Shown: positions 1 to 38,402 of the stretch, piece by piece
How the letters are laid out: each line of letters begins with the position of its first letter
Numbering within the stretch: the stretch's first letter is position 1
Assembly (NCBI GenBank): GCA_001600815.1
Contig: BCKZ01000008.1
Location: 837,885 to 901,884, forward strand
DNA length: 64,000 nucleotides
Direction of reading: 5' to 3'
Source: Alloascoidea hylecoeti
Lineage: Eukaryota
Made by a program: the position numbers and the translations under genes
The notes under the pieces: generated by a model
The model's database searches: none
What the model saw: only the letters and a program-made list of their open reading frames with translations
What the model was told of the DNA's origin: nothing

Positions 1-232
1 AAACCAAAGGAAGATAAACCAAGAGAGGAAGCAAAACAATTGGAGAAACCAAAGGAAGATAAACCAAAGGAAGATAAACCAAAGGAAGATAAACCAAAGG
101 AAGATAAACCAAGAGAGGAAGCAAAACAATTGGATAAACCAAAAGAAGAGAAACCAAAGGAAGATAAACCAAAAAAGGAAGCAAAACAATTGGAGAAACC
201 AAAAGAAGAAAAACCAAAAGAGGAGCCAAAAA
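1..232 (+). repeat. Coding minisatellite, 15-nt unit AAACCAAAGGAAGAT (KPKED) with EAKQL interruptions
   Basis: Tandem copies directly visible. Confidence 0.95.
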
Positions 233-3200
233 AATTAGAGAAAGCAAAAGGAGGGATTAGTGAAGTAAAAATCTTGAAACCAATAGGAGAAGATAAACCA
301 AAGAAGAAAGAAATTGATAAATTAAAATTCTCTTCTGAAAATGATAAACAAACGGAAGTTGGAATACCAACTGAAAATAATAAAGTAAAAGGAAACTCCC
401 TTAATATTGAAACTCCTAATATGCCTATAAAAGACAAAGCATTAGAAAATAAGAATCTAAGTCCCAAAGAAAATGTGGAGCCCACAACAAAAGAAAGATC
501 AATAAGTCCTTCTAAGACAAAACTTCCTCCTTCATTAATGCCATCAAGGATTCCAACACCGATGAATTTGCCCTCTAGATCTAAAAATTTATTACCACAA
601 ATTCCAGTTACCTCTTCATCTCCTGATACTGGAATGAAGCAAATTGGCTCAGATATTTCATTACCAAATATAACAGATGATTCAACCAATTCTTCACAAA
701 ATCCAACCTCTCATCTGCCACCCATTGACCACCCATCGGAAACCACACCCCGAGCTTTGGAACATACTGCTTCAAAATCTCCCCCTTTGAGGGACACTTC
801 TGTTGGACCTTCGGAGCTACCTCTTCCTCCCGTCGATACTTCAACTGCAATTTCAAGGAAATCTTCCCCACCTTTGCTCGATGAATCTTTGGAAGCTTTT
901 GTAGATTGTCTTGATGGATCAAACAGCCCACGGATATCTCCTGTAAGAGATGTAGTAGTTGGATCGTCTTCACCTTCTATATCACCTGTTGATGTTTCTA
1001 CCAGTTGGTCATGGGTACCTAAACCACCGCTTCTTGTAGATAGATTGTCGGATGCCCAAGTGTTGAATACTCAGGATCAGACAACAAGTCCGAGAACAGT
1101 TTCTCCAAACAGGGACATGTCAATTGAGGTATTACCAAATTCACCCTCTTATATTGATGTACCTACCAATTATTCAAGAGAACCAACGCCGCCTCCGCCC
1201 AATATGGATGTATCCTTAGAAGCAATCGCTCCGACTTGTGATAAATCATCAGCTGCACGTTCTTCCTCATTAGCTAGAGATGTTTCAATAGGGTCTTCAG
1301 AGATCTCACTTCCAAATGTAGATGTTTTCACAAGTTATTCACGGGCTATAACACCTCCTATCCCTCATATAGATGAATCTTCAGAAGCAATTGCATTAAC
1401 TTTTGATAAATCTTTAACTGCACAATCACTGGCTAGAGATGTTTCAGTAGGAAGCTCAGAAATTTCACTTCCCAATGTTGATNNNNNNNNNNNNNNNNNN
1501 NNNNNNNNNNNNNNNNNNNNNNNNNNNNNNNNNNNNNNNNNNNNNNNNNNNNNNNNNNNNNNNNNNNNNNNNNNNNNNNNNNNNNNNNNNNNNNNNNNNN
1601 NNNNNNNNNNNNNNNNNNNNNNNNNNNNNNNNNNNNNNNNNNNNNNNNNNNNNNNNNNNNNNNNNNNNNNNNNNNNNNNNNNNNNNNNNNNNNNNNNNNN
1701 NNNNNNNNNNNNNNNNNNNNNNNNNNNNNNNNNNNNNNNNNNNNNNNNNNNNNNNNNNNNNNNNNNNNNNNNNNNNNNNNNNNNNNNNNNNNNNNNNNNN
1801 NNNNNNNNNNNNNNNNNNNNNNNNNNNNNNNNNNNNNNNNNNNNNNNNNNNNNNNNNNNNNNNNNNNNNNNNNNNNNNNNNNNNNNNNNNNNNNNNNNNN
1901 NNNNNNNACATCAACTGGATCATCAGAACCTATTTTGGATTATGTTGATGTCTTGACAAGTTATTCACGGGCTATAACACCCCCTCTTCCTACTGTGGAT
2001 CAATCTTCTGAAGCAATTACCTCAACTTTTGATAAATCGGCAGTTGCTCAGTTTATTTTACCTATTGTTGTAGACACATCAACTGGATCATCAGAACCTG
2101 TTTTGGATAATGTTGATGCTTTCACTTATTATTCACGGGAGTCGACTCCTCCACCAGATATTGATGAGTCTTTACAAACAACACCCACTACTTTTGATAA
2201 ATCGGCTGCTGCGTCATATTTTCCTCCAACGAACGATGCTTCGGTCGGTAGTTCCAAACCTTCATACACTATAGATGCTCTAGTCAGTGCTGAACCTTTA
2301 TTTATTGATAATTGGACTAAACCTGAAATTTTTTTACCTCTTATTGATGTTTCAGCTGGGCCTTTATTACGTCCTCCGTCTCCTATAGATGCAGCAACAA
2401 CTACTTCTATTCTTGAGATACGAGACAACTCAACTGAACCAGTGAAGTCCTTAGACTTAATTGATACCGCAGTAGGTTTATCTCATGTTCTACCTCCTCC
2501 TGTCGATGCCTCTACAGAAATTCTACCCTCCACTTTTGATGTCGCTGCTGGTTCATCAGTTATTACAGTACTACGAGAGATAAATGTTGATTCTTCACGT
2601 AGTTTAACTCTATCTAATGATAGATCTACCCCGAATACAGTTGATGCCTGGACAATGGCGATGAAACAGCCTGTTTGGTTAGATGCTGCAATAGGTCCTT
2701 CAAGATCTCCTTCACCTACCATTGATGCCGCTATGGCTACCTCTTTGAAAACTAAAGATGGGTGGACAATACCTAATAGGGTTCTTTCACCTTTTGATAG
2801 ATCTGTTGACGCTTGTTACTCTATTTGTGACACTGGAATTGAGACCTGGACTTCACCAATCCGAGATGCTAACATAGAGGTGGCCAAAATTACTAACGAT
2901 ATCTCTGTAGGACCTTCAAGACAGCCATCACCTTCAAGAGATGTTTCTACTAACATTGATATTTTAACAACTGATGCGGCTATTGGTAGGAATAGATTAC
3001 CTACTCCACCAATTGATGTAGCTACGAATGCATTTTCGCTTACAAAAGATACTAACACAAGTACAGATGTTTTTCCGACAAGAGATATAGCAATTTGTAA
3101 TTCTCCTATGCATTCAGTAACTGACGTTGCTACAGGAACCCCAGGCCTTCGGACTCAAGAAGCAGCAGTTGAACCGATCGCGACTAGTATGATTTCTGAA

Positions 3201-6079
3201 GGGACATCACCAATTATTTCACCGGCTGGTAGAACTAGATCTTTGTCCAAATCTACAAGAAGTGTTTGTGTTGCAACTTCTCCAGAAATGCAACCATCAC
3301 TCCCCCCATTGCCACAAGCAAAGGAGATGATATCTGTTGGGACTGCAATGACACCTATGGTATTACCCAAATCATTATCATCGCCCAAAAGAAGGTTGTC
3401 GCCTCAAAGAAGATCTGTTTCAACTCCATTACAAATGGATACTACACCAAAAGTATTACCAAAATTACCAGCAAATGCAAATCATGTAGTTTCCAAAAGA
3501 AAATCAAGGTCTCCTTCCCGAGCTGTTTCTGTTGGGAATTCACCAATAAGAGATGCACTTGTTAAAGAATCACCACCACCATCACCACCTAATGAACCTG
3601 ATTTAGAGATGTCCACTTTATCTTTAAATCATTCACCACCACCAAGGTTGAATTTACCTGTTATTCCACAATCACCTAAAACTGAAGAAAAATTATATCA
3701 ACCACTTTATATTGATTCAAAAACTTTAGAGAATTATGTTGCAGCAGATGAATCAAATGTTTTGGTTGTTGATATTCGACCACGAGAAGAATTTAACAAG
3801 TGTCATATACCAGTGGAAAATATTATTTGTATTGATCCTATTTTATTACAAGTGAAGTAAGTTTACAAAAAATCTTTAACTTTAATCTAAAAAATCCTTC
3901 ATACTAACTAAAATTCTCATTTTTATTTTTATTTAGGCTTGATGATTCTCAACTAGAGTCAATTTTGAAAATATCAGTACCTAAGAATGAATATTATTTA
4001 TTTTTTCATAGACATGAATTTAATGTCATTGTATATTATACTGATGAAAAGATAATTAAGGATTATAACGAAGATACTTTGAAACATTTCCATGATGCTG
4101 TTTTAACACCATATTCTGCAAAACCATTGAAGCAACCTCCTCCTAGATTGTTGGTTGGAGGAATTGAAGCATGGAAAAGAAACAACAATAGGAAATCTGG
4201 GGTTTCATCACCTTCGACTCCTTTACCTTTGGCCCGCCTTCCTTCTCCAACCACCAGAAGCATCGACTCGTCGCCCATATCTGAGAAGACTCAAGATTTG
4301 AAACCAATTGAAACAGAATATAAACAGTTAAGATCATCACCCGAAAGCTCAGAAGAAGAAGAGGATCAAACTATTTCATATGACGAAAGACCTCCTCCAC
4401 TTCCAATTCCCCAGATTATTCAAGAATCACCACGCCAGGTTTCAAATAAGATGGATTCAGATCTACCGCCTCCTCCACCACCCAAAGATGATATCGAACC
4501 ACAACCACAGAAACAACTTCAACCTCGAAGAAGGATTCCACCAGAATCACCATTGCTAACTCCTGCGCCTCAAAGAATGATTGAACCTCGTATTCCAACA
4601 GTTCAAGATGTTTTTGATGAGACTGAAACTTCTACGGAATCAGATTATGATAGAGATTTAGATACAATTATGGAAGCATCTATAATGTCATCTCGTGGAG
4701 CAGGTGCACAATTAATATTTAATGAAAACTTTGAAACAATAGTTGGATTAAGAAATTTAGGTAATACAAGCTATTTAAATTGTATTATACAATGTTTAGC
4801 TGGATCAAAAGAATTTTGTCGTTTTTTCCTTGATGGTAATTTTGTTAAATTTTTACATCAAGTTAGAGTTACTAATAAAAGTGCAGCATTAGTTTATGAT
4901 TTTGCATCATTAATTGTTGCAATGTATACAAATTCTGGAAGATGTATATCCCCTGAACCATTGATTAGAAAAATAATAGCGCTGAGACCAGAATTTAAAC
5001 TTGATAATGAAAAAGATTGTCATAAATGTTTATCATTTTTGTTATCACAATTACATTCAGAAATGAGTGAAAAATCAAAGATTAATATGTTATTTGAATT
5101 TCCTGTTGAAGAATCTCAAGGAATGTCTAATTCACTATCAGCTTGGAAACGTTATGTTACAACAAAAGGATCAGTAATTACATATTTTTTTGAAGGACAA
5201 TCACAAATTGAAATTAAATGTCTTAGTTGTGGTAATACAGCAACTCAATTTCAAACTTTCTCAACATTAACTTTACCAATTCCATCTAGAGATGATATAA
5301 TTACAGATGATTACGGATCAAGATTTTTACTTGAAGATTGTTTTAAAACACTTTGTGGTGATCAAGTACTTCAAGGAGAAGAAGCATGGCAATGTCCAAA
5401 ATGTAAAGAACAAGAAATGGCAAAAAGTTATCATCGAAATAGTGGTAGTAAAGCATCATTAGATTCAGAAAATTCATCAATTTCATTAACAATTTCATCA
5501 TCTCCAACTACTGAAAAACATCATCTATTTAAAGGCCGAAAATTTAATATTTTTTCAGGAAAGAAGGATAAATCACAATTGCCACCATCATCTTCATCAC
5601 CAATACCATCGATTGCATCATCATCAAGTCCAAAAATCAAATACAGAAGATCAGTTAAAAGCACAAGGATTTCTATTTTCCCAGAAACATTGTTAATCCA
5701 TATTAATAGATTCACACCAAATGGAAGTGATAAAAATGATGTAACGATTTGTTATCCATTAGTACTTGATCTTTCTAAATATTCATCAAATTTCAAAGCA
5801 GCTGCTGAATCAGAAAATAACAATGAAAAGATTATATATTCATTATTCTCAGTTTCGAATCATTCAGGATCTTTAAATAAAGGGCACTATACAAGTTTAG
5901 TTAAAAAGCGAGTCGTATACGATGATTCGTCACAACCTGAATCAGCTTGGTGTTATTTTGATGATGAACAGGTTAAAATTGATATTAAACATGGTAATCC
6001 AGATGCACAATACGGGAAGACAAACAGTTCAATTAATAACGCATTTGCATATATATTGTTTTATGAGAGAATAATTTGA
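1..6079 (+). CDS. DOA4: Giant Doa4/Ubp5-family ubiquitin-specific protease-like protein (repeat-rich N-terminus, rhodanese domain, USP domain with catalytic Cys->Ser); 5'-truncated by the window, interrupted by an N gap, one intron 3857-3936
   Basis: Frame is open from base 1 and the same repeat continues across the gap. Rhodanese-like VLVVDIRPREEFNKCHIP...CIDP joins LVGGIEAW through a GTAAGT..TACTAAC..TAG intron that restores frame. USP boxes GLRNLGNTSYLNCIIQCL, NHSGSLNKGHYT, WCYFDDE. Could be a paralogue rather than the orthologue. Confidence 0.8.
1150..2260 (+). repeat. Degenerate coding repeat of about 50-55 aa (DVS[IV]GSSE..L.NVD.FT.YSR..TPP.P..DESS.AI..TFDKS) spanning the assembly gap
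   Basis: ACAAGTTATTCACGGGCTATAACACC at about 1330 and 1956; TTTGATAAATC recurs; the gap falls inside the array. Confidence 0.9.
1483..1907. other. Assembly gap (425 N) inside the coding repeat
   Basis: N run. Confidence 1.
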
Positions 6080-6223
6080 ATAATAAACAAGCATTAATAT
6101 TAATATTGATGTACTATATAATATAATTATAATTGCTATAGCTATTTTTTAATTGTATGCGGAATTTATATTATCATCATCTGATAATTGCGGATGTTGA
6201 CCTGCCAGTTTAACCAGATTAGG

Positions 6224-6757: not shown

Positions 6758-8557
6758 ATGGCTTCGAGAATCTTGAAATTCGGCTTAGGTTTGACCACTG
6801 CCGTCGTTGCCTCAGGCTCCGGGATCAAATACTACAATGACCAAAAGAGGTCAATGTCCACCTTTGTTGCCCCAAAATCGGTTCCTGCTCCTCTTTCCAG
6901 ATCTGCCCTTTTACAAAATGTTATCAATTCAAAAGGTGATGATAAATATGATATGGTAATTGTCGGTGGTGGTTCATCAGGGGCCGGTGTTGCCCTTGAT
7001 GCAACAACAAGAGGATTAAAGGTATTAGTGGTCGAGAAAAATGACTTTGCGTCCGGTACAAGTTCGAAGTCAACAAAGATGGTCCACGGTGGTGTAAGAT
7101 ATTTAGAGAAGGCATTTTGGGAATTAGATTATAAACAATTTGGTTTAGTTTCCGAGGCTTTATATGAAAGAGAGACTTTTTTAAATATTGCTCCCCATTT
7201 AACGTCCACATTGCCCATCATTATCCCTGTTTATAAATTATGGCAATTACCTTACTTATGGGCTGGATGTAAAATGTACGATGCTGTTGCCTGGAATAGA
7301 AACTTAAAGGCTTCTTATGTTATTTCTAAAAAGACGGTTAATAATCTTTTCCCAACCATGAAAACCGATGGGATGAAAGCTGCTTTAGTTTATCATGATG
7401 GTTCCTTTAATGATGCAAGGATGAACGTTTCCTTGGCGTTAACTGCAGCCGAAAAAGGTGCAACTATTTTAAATTATTTTGAAGTTGTTGATTTAAAGAA
7501 AGATCAAAGTGGAAAACTTAATGGTCTTACTGGTACTGATAGATTAACTGGTGAAAAATATGAAATTGAAACAAAATCTATTGTTAATTGTACTGGTCCA
7601 TTTGCTGATAATATTTTAAGATTAGATGATCCTTCAATTGCTGCAGATAGAAACTTAATTGTCCCTTCATCTGGAGTTCATGTTACTTTCCCAAGTTATT
7701 TGGGTTCTAAAACACTTGGTTTATTAGATCCTGCCACTCCTGATGGCCGTGTTTTGTTTTTCCTGCCATGGCAAGGACAAATTATTGCTGGTACAACTGA
7801 CAATAATCTTCCAAAATCTGTTGAATATCCAAAACCTGAAGAAGCTGATGTTAAATGGATCATTGAACAAATCAATAGTTATTTGAATGTTGAAGTTACT
7901 GAAGAAGATGTTTTATCATCATGGTCTGGTATTCGTCCATTAGTACGTGATTTAACTAAATCAAATACCGAATCTTTAGTTAGAAGTCATCTTGTTGTTG
8001 TAACTAAATCAAATTTAGTTTCTTTGACCGGAGGTAAATGGACCACTTATAGACAAATGGCTGAAGATGCTGTTGATAAAGCAATTGAAGTTGCAAACTT
8101 AAAACCAACTAAATTCACAAAATCTCAGACAACTAAAGTTAAAGTAATTGGTTCAGATGATGGATTTGATAAAATTCAATTACCAATTTATTTATCAAAA
8201 AAATTTCAAATTCCATTTAGTATTGCAGAACATTTATCAAATAATTATGGTACAAGATCTGAAACAATTTTATCTAAATATAATACTATCGGACAAACAA
8301 GATTAATCAATCCAAATGATATAGATTCTCATTTAACAATTGCTGAATTATTATATTCTATACATTATGAATATACTGTTCATGCTGCTGATTTCTTGAT
8401 GAATAGATCAAGATTAGCATTTTTAAATTTAAAGAGTGCAAAGGAATCATTACCAACTATTATTGATATAATGGGTGATGAATTACATTGGAATAAAGAA
8501 CAAAGAGAAAAGGAAAGACTTTATAGTGAAGAAGTTTTAAAATCTTTTAGAGCTTAG
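6758..8557 (+). CDS. GUT2: Mitochondrial FAD-dependent glycerol-3-phosphate dehydrogenase
   Basis: GGGSSGAG FAD-binding motif, GTSSKSTKMVHGGVRYLEKA, GGKWTTYRQMAE; first ATG at 6758. Confidence 0.95.
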   Translation: MASRILKFGLGLTTAVVASGSGIKYYNDQKRSMSTFVAPKSVPAPLSRSALLQNVINSKGDDKYDMVIVGGGSSGAGVALDATTRGLKVLVVEKNDFASGTSSKSTKMVHGGVRYLEKAFWELDYKQFGLVSEALYERETFLNIAPHLTSTLPIIIPVYKLWQLPYLWAGCKMYDAVAWNRNLKASYVISKKTVNNLFPTMKTDGMKAALVYHDGSFNDARMNVSLALTAAEKGATILNYFEVVDLKKDQSGKLNGLTGTDRLTGEKYEIETKSIVNCTGPFADNILRLDDPSIAADRNLIVPSSGVHVTFPSYLGSKTLGLLDPATPDGRVLFFLPWQGQIIAGTTDNNLPKSVEYPKPEEADVKWIIEQINSYLNVEVTEEDVLSSWSGIRPLVRDLTKSNTESLVRSHLVVVTKSNLVSLTGGKWTTYRQMAEDAVDKAIEVANLKPTKFTKSQTTKVKVIGSDDGFDKIQLPIYLSKKFQIPFSIAEHLSNNYGTRSETILSKYNTIGQTRLINPNDIDSHLTIAELLYSIHYEYTVHAADFLMNRSRLAFLNLKSAKESLPTIIDIMGDELHWNKEQREKERLYSEEVLKSFRA

Positions 8558-37019: not shown

Positions 37020-38402
37020 TCAACTTTTGTTTAGGTTTTCACTATTCAATCTTTTAAATTTTGTCCATGGAAAGTAATAAAATAATGACCCAGTTAAACA
37101 TATTAGTGTCACAATCACAGTAGCTGCACCAAATATAGCACCTATTACCTTAAATGTAAAAAAATTGGCATGTATACCAANNNNNNNNNNNNNNNNNNNN
37201 NNNNNNNNNNNNNNNNNNNNNNNNNNNNNNNNNNNNNNNNNNNNNNNNNNNNNNNNNNNNNNNNNNNNNNNNNNNNNNNNNNNNNNNNNNNNNNNNNNNN
37301 NNNNNNNNNNNNNNNNNNNNNNNNNNNNNNNNNNNNNNNNNNNNNNNNNNNNNNNNNNNNNNNNNNNNNNNNNNNNNNNNNNNNNNNNNNNNNNNNNNNN
37401 NNNNNNNNNNNNNNNNNNNNNNNNNNNNNNNNNNNNNNNNNNNNNNNNNNNNNNNNNNNNNNNNNNNNNNNNNNNNNNNNNNNNNNNNNNNNNNNNNNNN
37501 NNNNNNNNNNNNNNNNNNNNNNNNNNNNNNNNNNNNNNNNNNNNNNNNNNNNNNNNNNNNNNNNNNNNNNNNNNNNNNNNNNNNNNNNNNNNNNNNNNNN
37601 NNNNNNNNNNNNNNNNNNNNNNNNNNNNNNNNNNNNNNNNNNNNNNNNNNNNNNNNNNNNNNNNNNNNNNNNNNNNNNNNNNNNNNNNNNNNNNNNNNNN
37701 NNNNNNNNNNNNNNNNNNNNNNNNNNNNNNNNNNNNNNNNNNNNNNNNNNNNNNNNNNNNNNNNNNNNNNNNNNNNNNNNNNNNNNNNNNNNNNNNNNNN
37801 NNNNNNNNNNNNNNNNNNNNNNNNNNNNNNNNNNNNNNNNNNNNNNNNNNNNNNNNNNNNNNNNNNNNNNNNNNNNNNNNNNNNNNNNNNNNNNNNNNNN
37901 NNNNNNNNNNNNNNNNNNNNNNNNNNNNNNNNNNNNNNNNNNNNNNNNNNNNNNNNNNNNNNNNNNNNNNNNNNNNNNNNNNNNNNNNNNNNNNNGAAAA
38001 CATCCAAGGAAAACATTTTTTGATGGATCTTTCATTAGTTTTTTGAAGTTATCAGGGAATAATAAATTTTGTGCTATGAATAGGAATGATGTAAGAAGTA
38101 CTAAAAGACATTCTATCGCAAACATTACCAGACCAAGTATTCGTAAGCCATGAGTAGGAAATACAAATTCGTGAAGAATACCTGAGGACATACCGGTTCC
38201 CATAGTCGATGCAAACCAACTGAAAAATACAAATTATGGTTAATCATTACTGTATATAAAAAAAATGCAATTGAAATACTTACAATGGTGTGAAATCTTC
38301 TGTTAGTATAATAAATACTGCCCTCCAATAAGGTATTTTCTTCTCAAGCGTTAAGCCAGAATTTATATGATCATCATTATTATTATTAAGAATCTTTTCC
38401 AT
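37020..38402 (-). CDS. SSU1: SLAC1/TDT-family sulfite efflux pump, copy A (middle lies in the N gap; intron 38220-38283; N-terminus shortened or disrupted)
   Basis: Near-identical to 39515-40828 on both sides of the gap; same intron position; first in-frame ATG at 38402. Confidence 0.7.
37181..37995. other. Assembly gap (815 N) inside SSU1 copy A
   Basis: N run; the equivalent stretch in copy B is about 666 nt. Confidence 1.

Follow-up and report, generated by a model that had tools for sequence, protein, structure and literature searches.

A likely UBP7-type rhodanese–USP protein of the yeast Alloascoidea hylecoeti with serine at the catalytic cysteine site: a probable isopeptidase-dead paralogue

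The DNA analysed here, called the window, is a stretch of 64,000 nucleotides (nt) of Alloascoidea hylecoeti (GenBank assembly GCA_001600815.1, contig BCKZ01000008.1, positions 837,885 to 901,884 of the forward strand). Near its start lies a gene for a protein with a rhodanese-like domain and a C-terminal ubiquitin-specific protease (USP) domain, in which the nucleophilic cysteine is naturally replaced by serine. The gene is genuine and intact, and its product has lost both the nucleophile and the groove that receives the ubiquitin tail while keeping the USP fold. Judged from these changes, the protein most likely can no longer cleave isopeptide-linked ubiquitin. We consider it probable that it is a UBP7-type rhodanese–USP protein, isopeptidase-dead and retained for a non-catalytic role as a scaffold or adaptor, with a canonical Doa4-like paralogue present.

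The USP domain of the protein (P0001) matches the Pfam family PF00443 over its full length (profile positions 1–254 of 254, E = 5.9e-53), far beyond chance. The original prediction had read serine at the site of the nucleophilic cysteine, and AGC indeed stands in frame at 4769–4771, where 248 of 249 related domains have cysteine. The second change claimed there, from QQDxxEF to EKDCHKC, was also found as described, and the His box (GHYT) and the FDD motif are both present (table 1). Measured against the features of an active USP, P0001 has kept H650, D675, which we take to be the triad aspartate from the numbering of USP7, and the oxyanion residue N273; the nucleophilic cysteine and the QQDxxEF motif are absent.

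The region was compared with assembled contigs from three sequencing data sets: an isolate run of 2016 (X1, word depth 20.8), an isolate run of 2023 from another study (X3, word depth 7.9) and a wood-decay metagenome of 2020 (X4, word depth 12). There are no differences from the window over positions 4434–6100, 3700–5424 and 3700–5387, respectively. Because the contigs of all three are identical to the window, the serine codon is not a sequencing error. An artefact of sequencing or assembly, with TGC as the true codon, would need a difference of a single base only, and the window itself may derive from X1 or X3, two of the three assemblies. The metagenome is independent, however, and both it and X3 agree with X1 without a single difference in the region. 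The altered second motif would moreover require at least six further base changes, which bears out the earlier argument that it speaks against a simple read error. Such an artefact is therefore extremely improbable.

The residue at the nucleophile site was examined in several sets of related proteins. Cysteine occupies this column in 22 of 22 homologues of alignment A1, and in all 28 UBP7-like and Doa4 sequences with a covered Cys box (one further row, P0276, is truncated). The only exception among 249 Doa4/UBP7-type domains is P0326, which has glycine. A motif search matched the Cys box in 116 of 119 non-self proteins, 113 of them with cysteine. An exhaustive search added 111 further representatives: 103 have the motif with cysteine and one (P0326) has it with glycine, while the remaining seven, in which the motif was not matched, comprise one truncated sequence and six that proved on inspection to have cysteine. 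A non-exhaustive literature search found no paper describing a natural Cys-to-Ser protein of the Ubp7/Doa4 type.

These searches also brought up other unusual proteins. A natural serine stands at the nucleophile site (GNTSY) in P0112, P0113 and P0118, which are distant USPs belonging to other subfamilies, and the Doa4-like P0326 carries glycine (GNTGY). A box of the QD..EF type is kept in P0113, P0118 and P0326; none was found in P0112. By their sequences, the four proteins may be further candidates for pseudo-deubiquitinases (pseudo-DUBs).

The extent of the change was then measured on 51 near-invariant columns, at least 93% conserved across the 249 other Doa4/UBP7-type domains; the window protein took no part in the choice of these columns, which biases the comparison slightly in favour of the other domains. 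The window protein has kept 40 of the 51 columns and changed 11 (C278S, Q358E, E363K, F364C, D370S, L376M, Q419E, L426I, S435A, E476Q and Y703F). This makes it the most deviant of the 250 domains, the other 249 having a median of 0, a mean of 0.76 and a maximum of 9 changes. The changes from glutamate to lysine and from glutamate to glutamine are found in the window protein alone, both columns being glutamate in 249 of 249 others. The columns kept include the catalytic histidine and aspartate, the oxyanion asparagine and the four zinc cysteines.

The likely effect of the second altered motif can be read from structures of ubiquitin-specific USPs. As described for these enzymes, a conserved glutamate (Glu258 of USP28) forms a strong salt bridge with Arg72 of ubiquitin, Arg74 is contacted by Gln254, and a glutamine that is highly conserved packs on the terminal glycine of the ubiquitin tail (PMC8983731). 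Mapped by spacing onto QQDxxE, these contacts would fall to the E, to the second Q and to the first Q, in that order. The equivalent residues of the window protein are Lys, Lys and Glu, and the groove for the LRLRGG tail would accordingly carry two positive charges where Arg72 and Arg74 should dock. Since the contact residues are now Glu, Lys and Lys, canonical binding of the ubiquitin tail is probably lost.

The replacement of the nucleophile by serine has been engineered several times in the same fold. The non-cleaving forms USP2 C276S and USP35 C450S were crystallized with ubiquitin (PDB entries), and the closest PDB sequence to the window protein is USP2 C276S (5xve). The Cys-to-Ser (CS) version of TssM, which has a USP fold, is reported to be slightly more stable, to remain unlabelled by ubiquitin propargylamide (Ub-PA) and to have no isopeptidase activity, with a residual esterase activity only, reduced about 1e4-fold (bioRxiv 10.64898/2026.10.20.760496). 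These three engineered proteins are stable and isopeptidase-dead with the same substitution in the same fold. The engineered Cys-to-Ser USPs retain QQDxxE and bind ubiquitin, as seen in the co-crystals, whereas the groove of the window protein is remodelled.

To judge from prediction, the USP fold is intact. The AlphaFold2 model of the domain has a mean predicted local distance difference test (pLDDT) score of 83.3 and a predicted template modelling (pTM) score of 0.82; 279 of its 459 residues score at least 90. Disorder is confined to a serine-rich insert (pLDDT below 50 for model residues 262–299). The top Foldseek matches of the model are USP2, USP4, USP15, USP21 and USP8, with target TM scores of 0.77–0.88 and E values of 1e-28 to 1e-25. 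Together with the intact open reading frame (ORF) and the 40 conserved columns of 51, the predicted fold suggests that the protein is under constraint.

A second, Doa4-like USP locus of the same organism is present in contigs of both X3 (4948 nt) and X4 (5565 nt). These contigs match the window only at the Cys-box stretch (47 of 57 nt) and at the WxYFDD stretch (25 of 27 nt). The two stretches are 919 nt apart at the second locus, against 1135 nt in the window gene, and the flanks translate to a Doa4-like context. On this evidence, the locus is most likely the canonical DOA4 of the same organism, presumably with the catalytic cysteine. No peptide match to it was found among 351 collected proteins, and a 30-nt consensus of its loose end had no match in metagenome contigs of the Joint Genome Institute (JGI). 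The possibility that the second contig is a recent allele or haplotype of the window gene was ruled out by the 10 of 57 and 2 of 27 base differences and by the different spacing.

The retention of an isopeptidase-dead paralogue is the best reading of the gene because of the genuine serine, the altered second motif, the intact gene, the predicted fold and the second locus. The USP domain would then be a natural pseudo-enzyme, with serine in place of the nucleophilic cysteine and a groove changed from Gln to Glu, from Gln to Lys and, at the glutamate that binds Arg72, from Glu to Lys. The binding surfaces of the scaffold would be offered by the rhodanese-like domain, the proline-rich linker, the long repeat-rich N-terminal region and the USP fold, and catalysis would be supplied by the separate canonical Doa4-like paralogue. 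By analogy with Ubp7 and Doa4, the protein may act in the pathway of endocytosis and multivesicular bodies (MVB). The original prediction of a retained inactive protein, serving either ubiquitin binding or as a scaffold, thus stands in part: the retained isopeptidase-dead paralogue is upheld as the best reading, and ubiquitin binding has become doubtful with the change of the tail-contact residues.

As to its family, the protein is likely to be of the UBP7 type. Its best named matches are UBP7 (YIL156W-like) proteins of Saccharomycetaceae, with 29–36% identity (29–38% for UBP7-like proteins overall); Doa4-type proteins are 33–40% identical to it. In trees of 42 and 43 rows computed with the LG+C20 posterior mean site frequency (PMSF) model as quick searches, it is sister to a broad UBP7-like clade with a support of 99 in the Shimodaira–Hasegawa-like approximate likelihood ratio test (SH-aLRT). 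The split uniting the window protein with the UBP7-like proteins received an ultrafast bootstrap (UFBoot) value of 100 in a separate tree under LG+F+G4. Two inserts point the same way. The distance from the second CxxC to HxxRF is 95 residues here, 67–94 residues in the 15 motif-matched UBP7-like rows and 18 residues in two Doa4 proteins. After FDD, the segment VKIDIKHGNPD aligns with V(K/R)xxxxHG(D/N) of UBP7-like proteins and is absent from Doa4. The earlier term Doa4-family needs correction: the nearest clade is UBP7-like and not DOA4/UBP5, by both support values and both inserts, and the protein falls outside the Doa4 clade. The term is valid only in the wide sense of rhodanese–USP proteins.

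The gene order next to the GUT2-like gene (table 1) matches that of UBP7 and GUT2 in S. cerevisiae, where UBP7 is YIL156W and GUT2 is YIL155C. This synteny is not exclusive to UBP7. Trichomonascus has a Doa4-type gene and GUT2 together on one contig of 226,988 nt (P0131/P0356, RefSeq numbers 8 apart); likewise, P0027 (Doa4-type) and P0435 (GUT2) both report a contig of 13,715 nt. The linkage of rhodanese–USP genes with GUT2 may be older than the split between UBP7 and DOA4.

Several points weigh against the reading of a retained, inactive UBP7-type protein. Searches of 5.8 billion clusters and of 1.84 billion representatives found no protein more than 40% identical to the window protein. The product of the GUT2-like neighbour is distant from all its matches too, and part of the long branch of the window protein is therefore not specific to this gene: in the library of 5.8 billion clusters, its best non-self match is only 50–51% identical, and matches from ascomycete yeasts, basidiomycetes and mucoromycetes lie at a similar distance. 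By these comparisons, the lineage of the organism is isolated or fast-evolving as a whole. Long branches meet in the PMSF tree, which carries a warning to this effect; the branch of the window protein measures 0.97–1.5 in the PMSF trees, against a median of 0.2–0.38. The partners of the nucleophile in the triad are all in place, a state compatible with retained chemistry and equally with recent loss, and USP folds without the cysteine can keep ubiquitin esterase activity, as the examples below illustrate. Finally, the identity of the protein as UBP7 may itself be the product of long-branch attraction. Besides an artefact, three competing explanations were considered.

With respect to identity, the gene could be a lineage-specific duplicate of DOA4 that has been pulled to the UBP7 stem by long-branch attraction. 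The wording of its Cys box, YLNCIIQCLAG, is Doa4-like, the UBP7 segment after LHxEL is absent, and the best matches of the rhodanese region are Doa4-type proteins. When the UBP7 rows were removed, the protein, now with a very long branch (2.16), joined the post-Lipomyces Doa4 proteins at their unresolved base, next to the Doa4 group of the Trichomonascus/Sugiyamaella type; and the linkage to GUT2 is shared, as noted, by the Doa4-type gene of Trichomonascus. The Doa4-like features can, however, be ancestral states, and a duplicate of DOA4 would have to be reconciled with the split supported under the site-heterogeneous model as well as under LG+F+G4 and with two insert characters that are common to UBP7-like proteins and absent from Doa4. 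We regard a DOA4 duplicate as rather unlikely.

With respect to activity, the protein could still be a hydrolase, in which serine with the intact histidine, aspartate and asparagine, or a water molecule activated by the histidine, acts on another bond or modifier. The histidine, aspartate, oxyanion asparagine and fold are all kept, and there are precedents for such chemistry: TssM CS, its Cys-to-Ala (CA) version and USP21 CA are reported to keep ubiquitin esterase activity, with an efficiency about 1e4-fold lower, and OTULINL, a pseudo-DUB without the cysteine, to have a weak esterase activity on serine-linked ubiquitin (Ub-Ser) (bioRxiv 10.64898/2026.10.20.760496). The SUMO-specific USPL1 offers a precedent for a change of modifier. 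In this USP fold the glutamate and glutamine that read the ubiquitin tail are replaced (Phe335 and Met330), which alters what the groove accepts; it lacks blocking loops and, unlike the window protein with its serine, it keeps the catalytic cysteine and is active (PMC8983731). Yet the esterase activity of TssM CS is residual only and is accompanied by no isopeptidase activity (bioRxiv 10.64898/2026.10.20.760496), and the two lysines at the docking sites of Arg72 and Arg74 disfavour any ubiquitin substrate, whether ester-linked or not. An alternative substrate, either ester-linked ubiquitin or a ubiquitin-like protein with a tail suited to the now basic groove, is hypothetical only. We therefore hold a persisting hydrolase to be improbable. 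A more particular version, for which we see a lower probability, is that of a re-tooled Ser–His–Asp USP whose charge-reversed Lys/Lys groove would hydrolyse or tightly read a target other than isopeptide-linked ubiquitin, such as an ester conjugate, or else a ubiquitin-like protein or a peptide, either of them with an acidic C-terminal tail; if true, a family of cysteine proteases would have a natural member with a serine nucleophile.

With respect to retention, the gene could have been disabled recently, being now without function, drifting towards loss and intact only for lack of time. The step from TGC to AGC is a single base change, the second Doa4-like locus could make the gene redundant, and no orthologue above 40% identity that could show constraint was found in the libraries searched. 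A gene decaying in this way should not, however, have changed 11 near-invariant columns and yet preserve 714 codons of AT-rich DNA free of stop codons and frameshifts, together with its intron signals, its core, its zinc ligands and the other 40 of the 51 conserved columns. Eleven changes with an intact ORF and fold point to a gene that has diverged for a long time while selection maintained its fold, and not to recent neutral decay, and we rate recent decay as improbable too.

The gene has a more complex structure than the single long ORF of the original prediction. That exon 2 is long and uninterrupted is correct (714 codons in DNA with a G+C content of 31.8%), but an intron precedes it and the gene runs far upstream. 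The ORF listing gives an open frame at 1482..3860 with a 5' splice site, GTAAGT, at 3857, and joining the exons gives a single frame with a length divisible by three and one terminal stop. At the start of the window, a 15-nt tandem repeat of the KPKED type (positions 1–221) is followed by degenerate repeats of about 50 residues rich in serine, proline and threonine. The upstream frame is probably the 5' part of the USP gene, the link being hidden by a masked run; it lies in frame 1 before the mask and the gene continues in frame 3 after it, an offset of one base if the length of the mask is true. The protein could exceed 2000 residues, and its repeat-rich N-terminal extension was not seen in the aligned UBP7 or Doa4 proteins. 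The UBP7 N-terminal domain (FTPEYSxELL...) was not seen in the readable part of 1–3856, a region in which the window begins inside an ORF and 425 bases are masked.

A rhodanese-like domain upstream of the USP domain, a trait of the UBP7-like clade, is present in the gene. Pfam did not call the rhodanese domain in either exon taken singly. When the spliced region was compared with Doa4/UBP7 proteins by blastp, 140 match lines with E values of 1e-3 or below were obtained (best 1.6e-23), and the matches span the exon junction, with Doa4-type rhodanese regions at 30–37% identity and E values of about 1e-20. The proline-rich linker may bind partners. The features of the gene are listed in table 1.

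Table 1. Features of the USP gene and of its downstream neighbour, with positions in the window.
Feature	Position	Strand	Remarks
Upstream open frame (frame 1)	1..1482	+	lysine/proline-rich; open at window start; no Pfam family; probable 5' part of the gene
Exon 1, visible part	1908..3856	+	repeat-rich low-complexity region, then first rhodanese-like half from about 3705
Rhodanese-like domain, interrupted by the intron	3705..4185	+	blastp of spliced region
Intron	3857..3936	+	80 nt, phase 2; GTAAGT ... TACTAAC ... TAG read directly
Exon 2	3937..6079	+	second rhodanese-like half, proline-rich linker, USP domain; stop TAA 6077–6079
Proline-rich linker (PPPLPIP ... LPPPPPPK)	4391..4486	+	matches PPPPPP-rich linker of UBP7 consensus, alignment A1
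USP (peptidase C19) domain	4742..6064	+	Pfam PF00443; P0001 residues 269–709
Cys box GLRNLGNTSYLNCIIQCL (GLRNLGNT-S-YLNCIIQCL)	4745..4798	+	AGC (Ser) 4769–4771 at site of nucleophilic Cys; oxyanion Asn (GLRN) kept
EKDCHKC in place of QQDxQEF, ubiquitin-tail groove motif	5009..5029	+	Gln to Glu, Gln to Lys, Glu to Lys, Phe to Cys
Zinc-ribbon cysteines of the fingers (CxxC ... CxxC)	5219..5404	+	4 of 4 kept; columns C174, C177, C232, C235 of alignments A1/A2
Serine-rich insert after second CxxC	5411..5647	+	predicted disordered; UBP7-type character
His box GHYT	5882..5893	+	kept; catalytic His codon 5885–5887
FDD with triad Asp	5957..5965	+	kept; Asp codons 5960–5965; then VKIDIKHGNPD
GUT2-like mitochondrial glycerol-3-phosphate dehydrogenase, dependent on flavin adenine dinucleotide (FAD)	6758..8557	+	downstream neighbour; Pfam DAO + DAO_C

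The window as a whole is eukaryotic and yeast-like, with a G+C content of 31.8% and dense long ORFs. To our knowledge, AGC encodes serine in every nuclear code. A non-standard code was considered and rejected on the two CTG codons examined, both of which look like leucine. The sole CTG codon of the GUT2-like gene corresponds to leucine in 60 of 60 homologues. The single CTG of exon 2 encodes the leucine of ALRP, a near-invariant leucine in the homologue alignment. There are two runs of N, one of 425 bases at 1483–1907, within the repeat region of the USP gene, and one of 815 bases at 37181–37995, which is overlapped by mechanical ORFs on both strands. Between 9485 and 63466 the window carries ordinary fungal genes. 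They include those for a NUDIX protein, a Myb-domain protein, a ZIP transporter, an F-box protein, an OPT transporter, a PFF1-type vacuolar M28 protease, a metacaspase, a SLAC1-type channel, a Zn2Cys6 factor, a lipase, an MFS transporter, an EB1-like protein, an FtsH/m-AAA protease and an RRM protein.

The window protein can be compared with several known systems. With S. cerevisiae Ubp7 and the UBP7-like clade it shares the rhodanese-like domain, the proline-rich linker, the C-terminal USP domain, the long insert, the HG(D/N) segment and the GUT2 neighbour. Ubp11 is the paralogue of S. cerevisiae Ubp7. The UBP7-like proteins examined (26 rows of one alignment, and others) all keep the cysteine and QQDxxE, whereas the window protein has serine and EKDCHKC, and Ubp7 itself is described as an active DUB that acts on Ede1 in endocytosis (PMC7653365). 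Yeast Doa4 and Ubp5 and animal USP8 belong to the same wider family of rhodanese and USP proteins, and the Cys-box wording NCIIQCLAG of the window protein is Doa4-like; the Doa4 proteins lack the two inserts and keep 48–57% identity across the subphylum.

Beyond this family, USP39/Sad1 and USP52/PAN2 are described as USP folds without the canonical nucleophile that have non-catalytic roles (PMC10919355), similar to the state proposed for the window protein. They differ from it in lacking both the cysteine and the histidine (USP39 has aspartate at the cysteine site), whereas the window protein keeps the histidine. They are also ancient, universally conserved and members of other subfamilies, while the present case is seen in one isolated lineage. 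USP53 and USP54, formerly called pseudo-enzymes, proved active, which is a caution against concluding inactivity from sequence alone; that of the window protein must be proved at the bench.

Pseudo-DUBs are a recognized but small class, several supposed members of which recently turned out to be active. The USP fold already has pseudo-enzymes in USP39/Sad1 and PAN2, and the window protein would add one more. It is an unusually clean case, in which the alterations are confined to the nucleophile and the tail groove of a UBP7-type protein that is intact in other respects, and a canonical Doa4-like copy is found in the same genome. Its reach is limited to one isolated lineage. The protein would provide a natural test case for what is bound or cleaved by a USP that has serine for cysteine and a remodelled groove. 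The finding would mean that proteins of the Ubp7 branch can persist after losing catalysis, and it points to a non-catalytic role in a poorly understood family of yeast DUBs.

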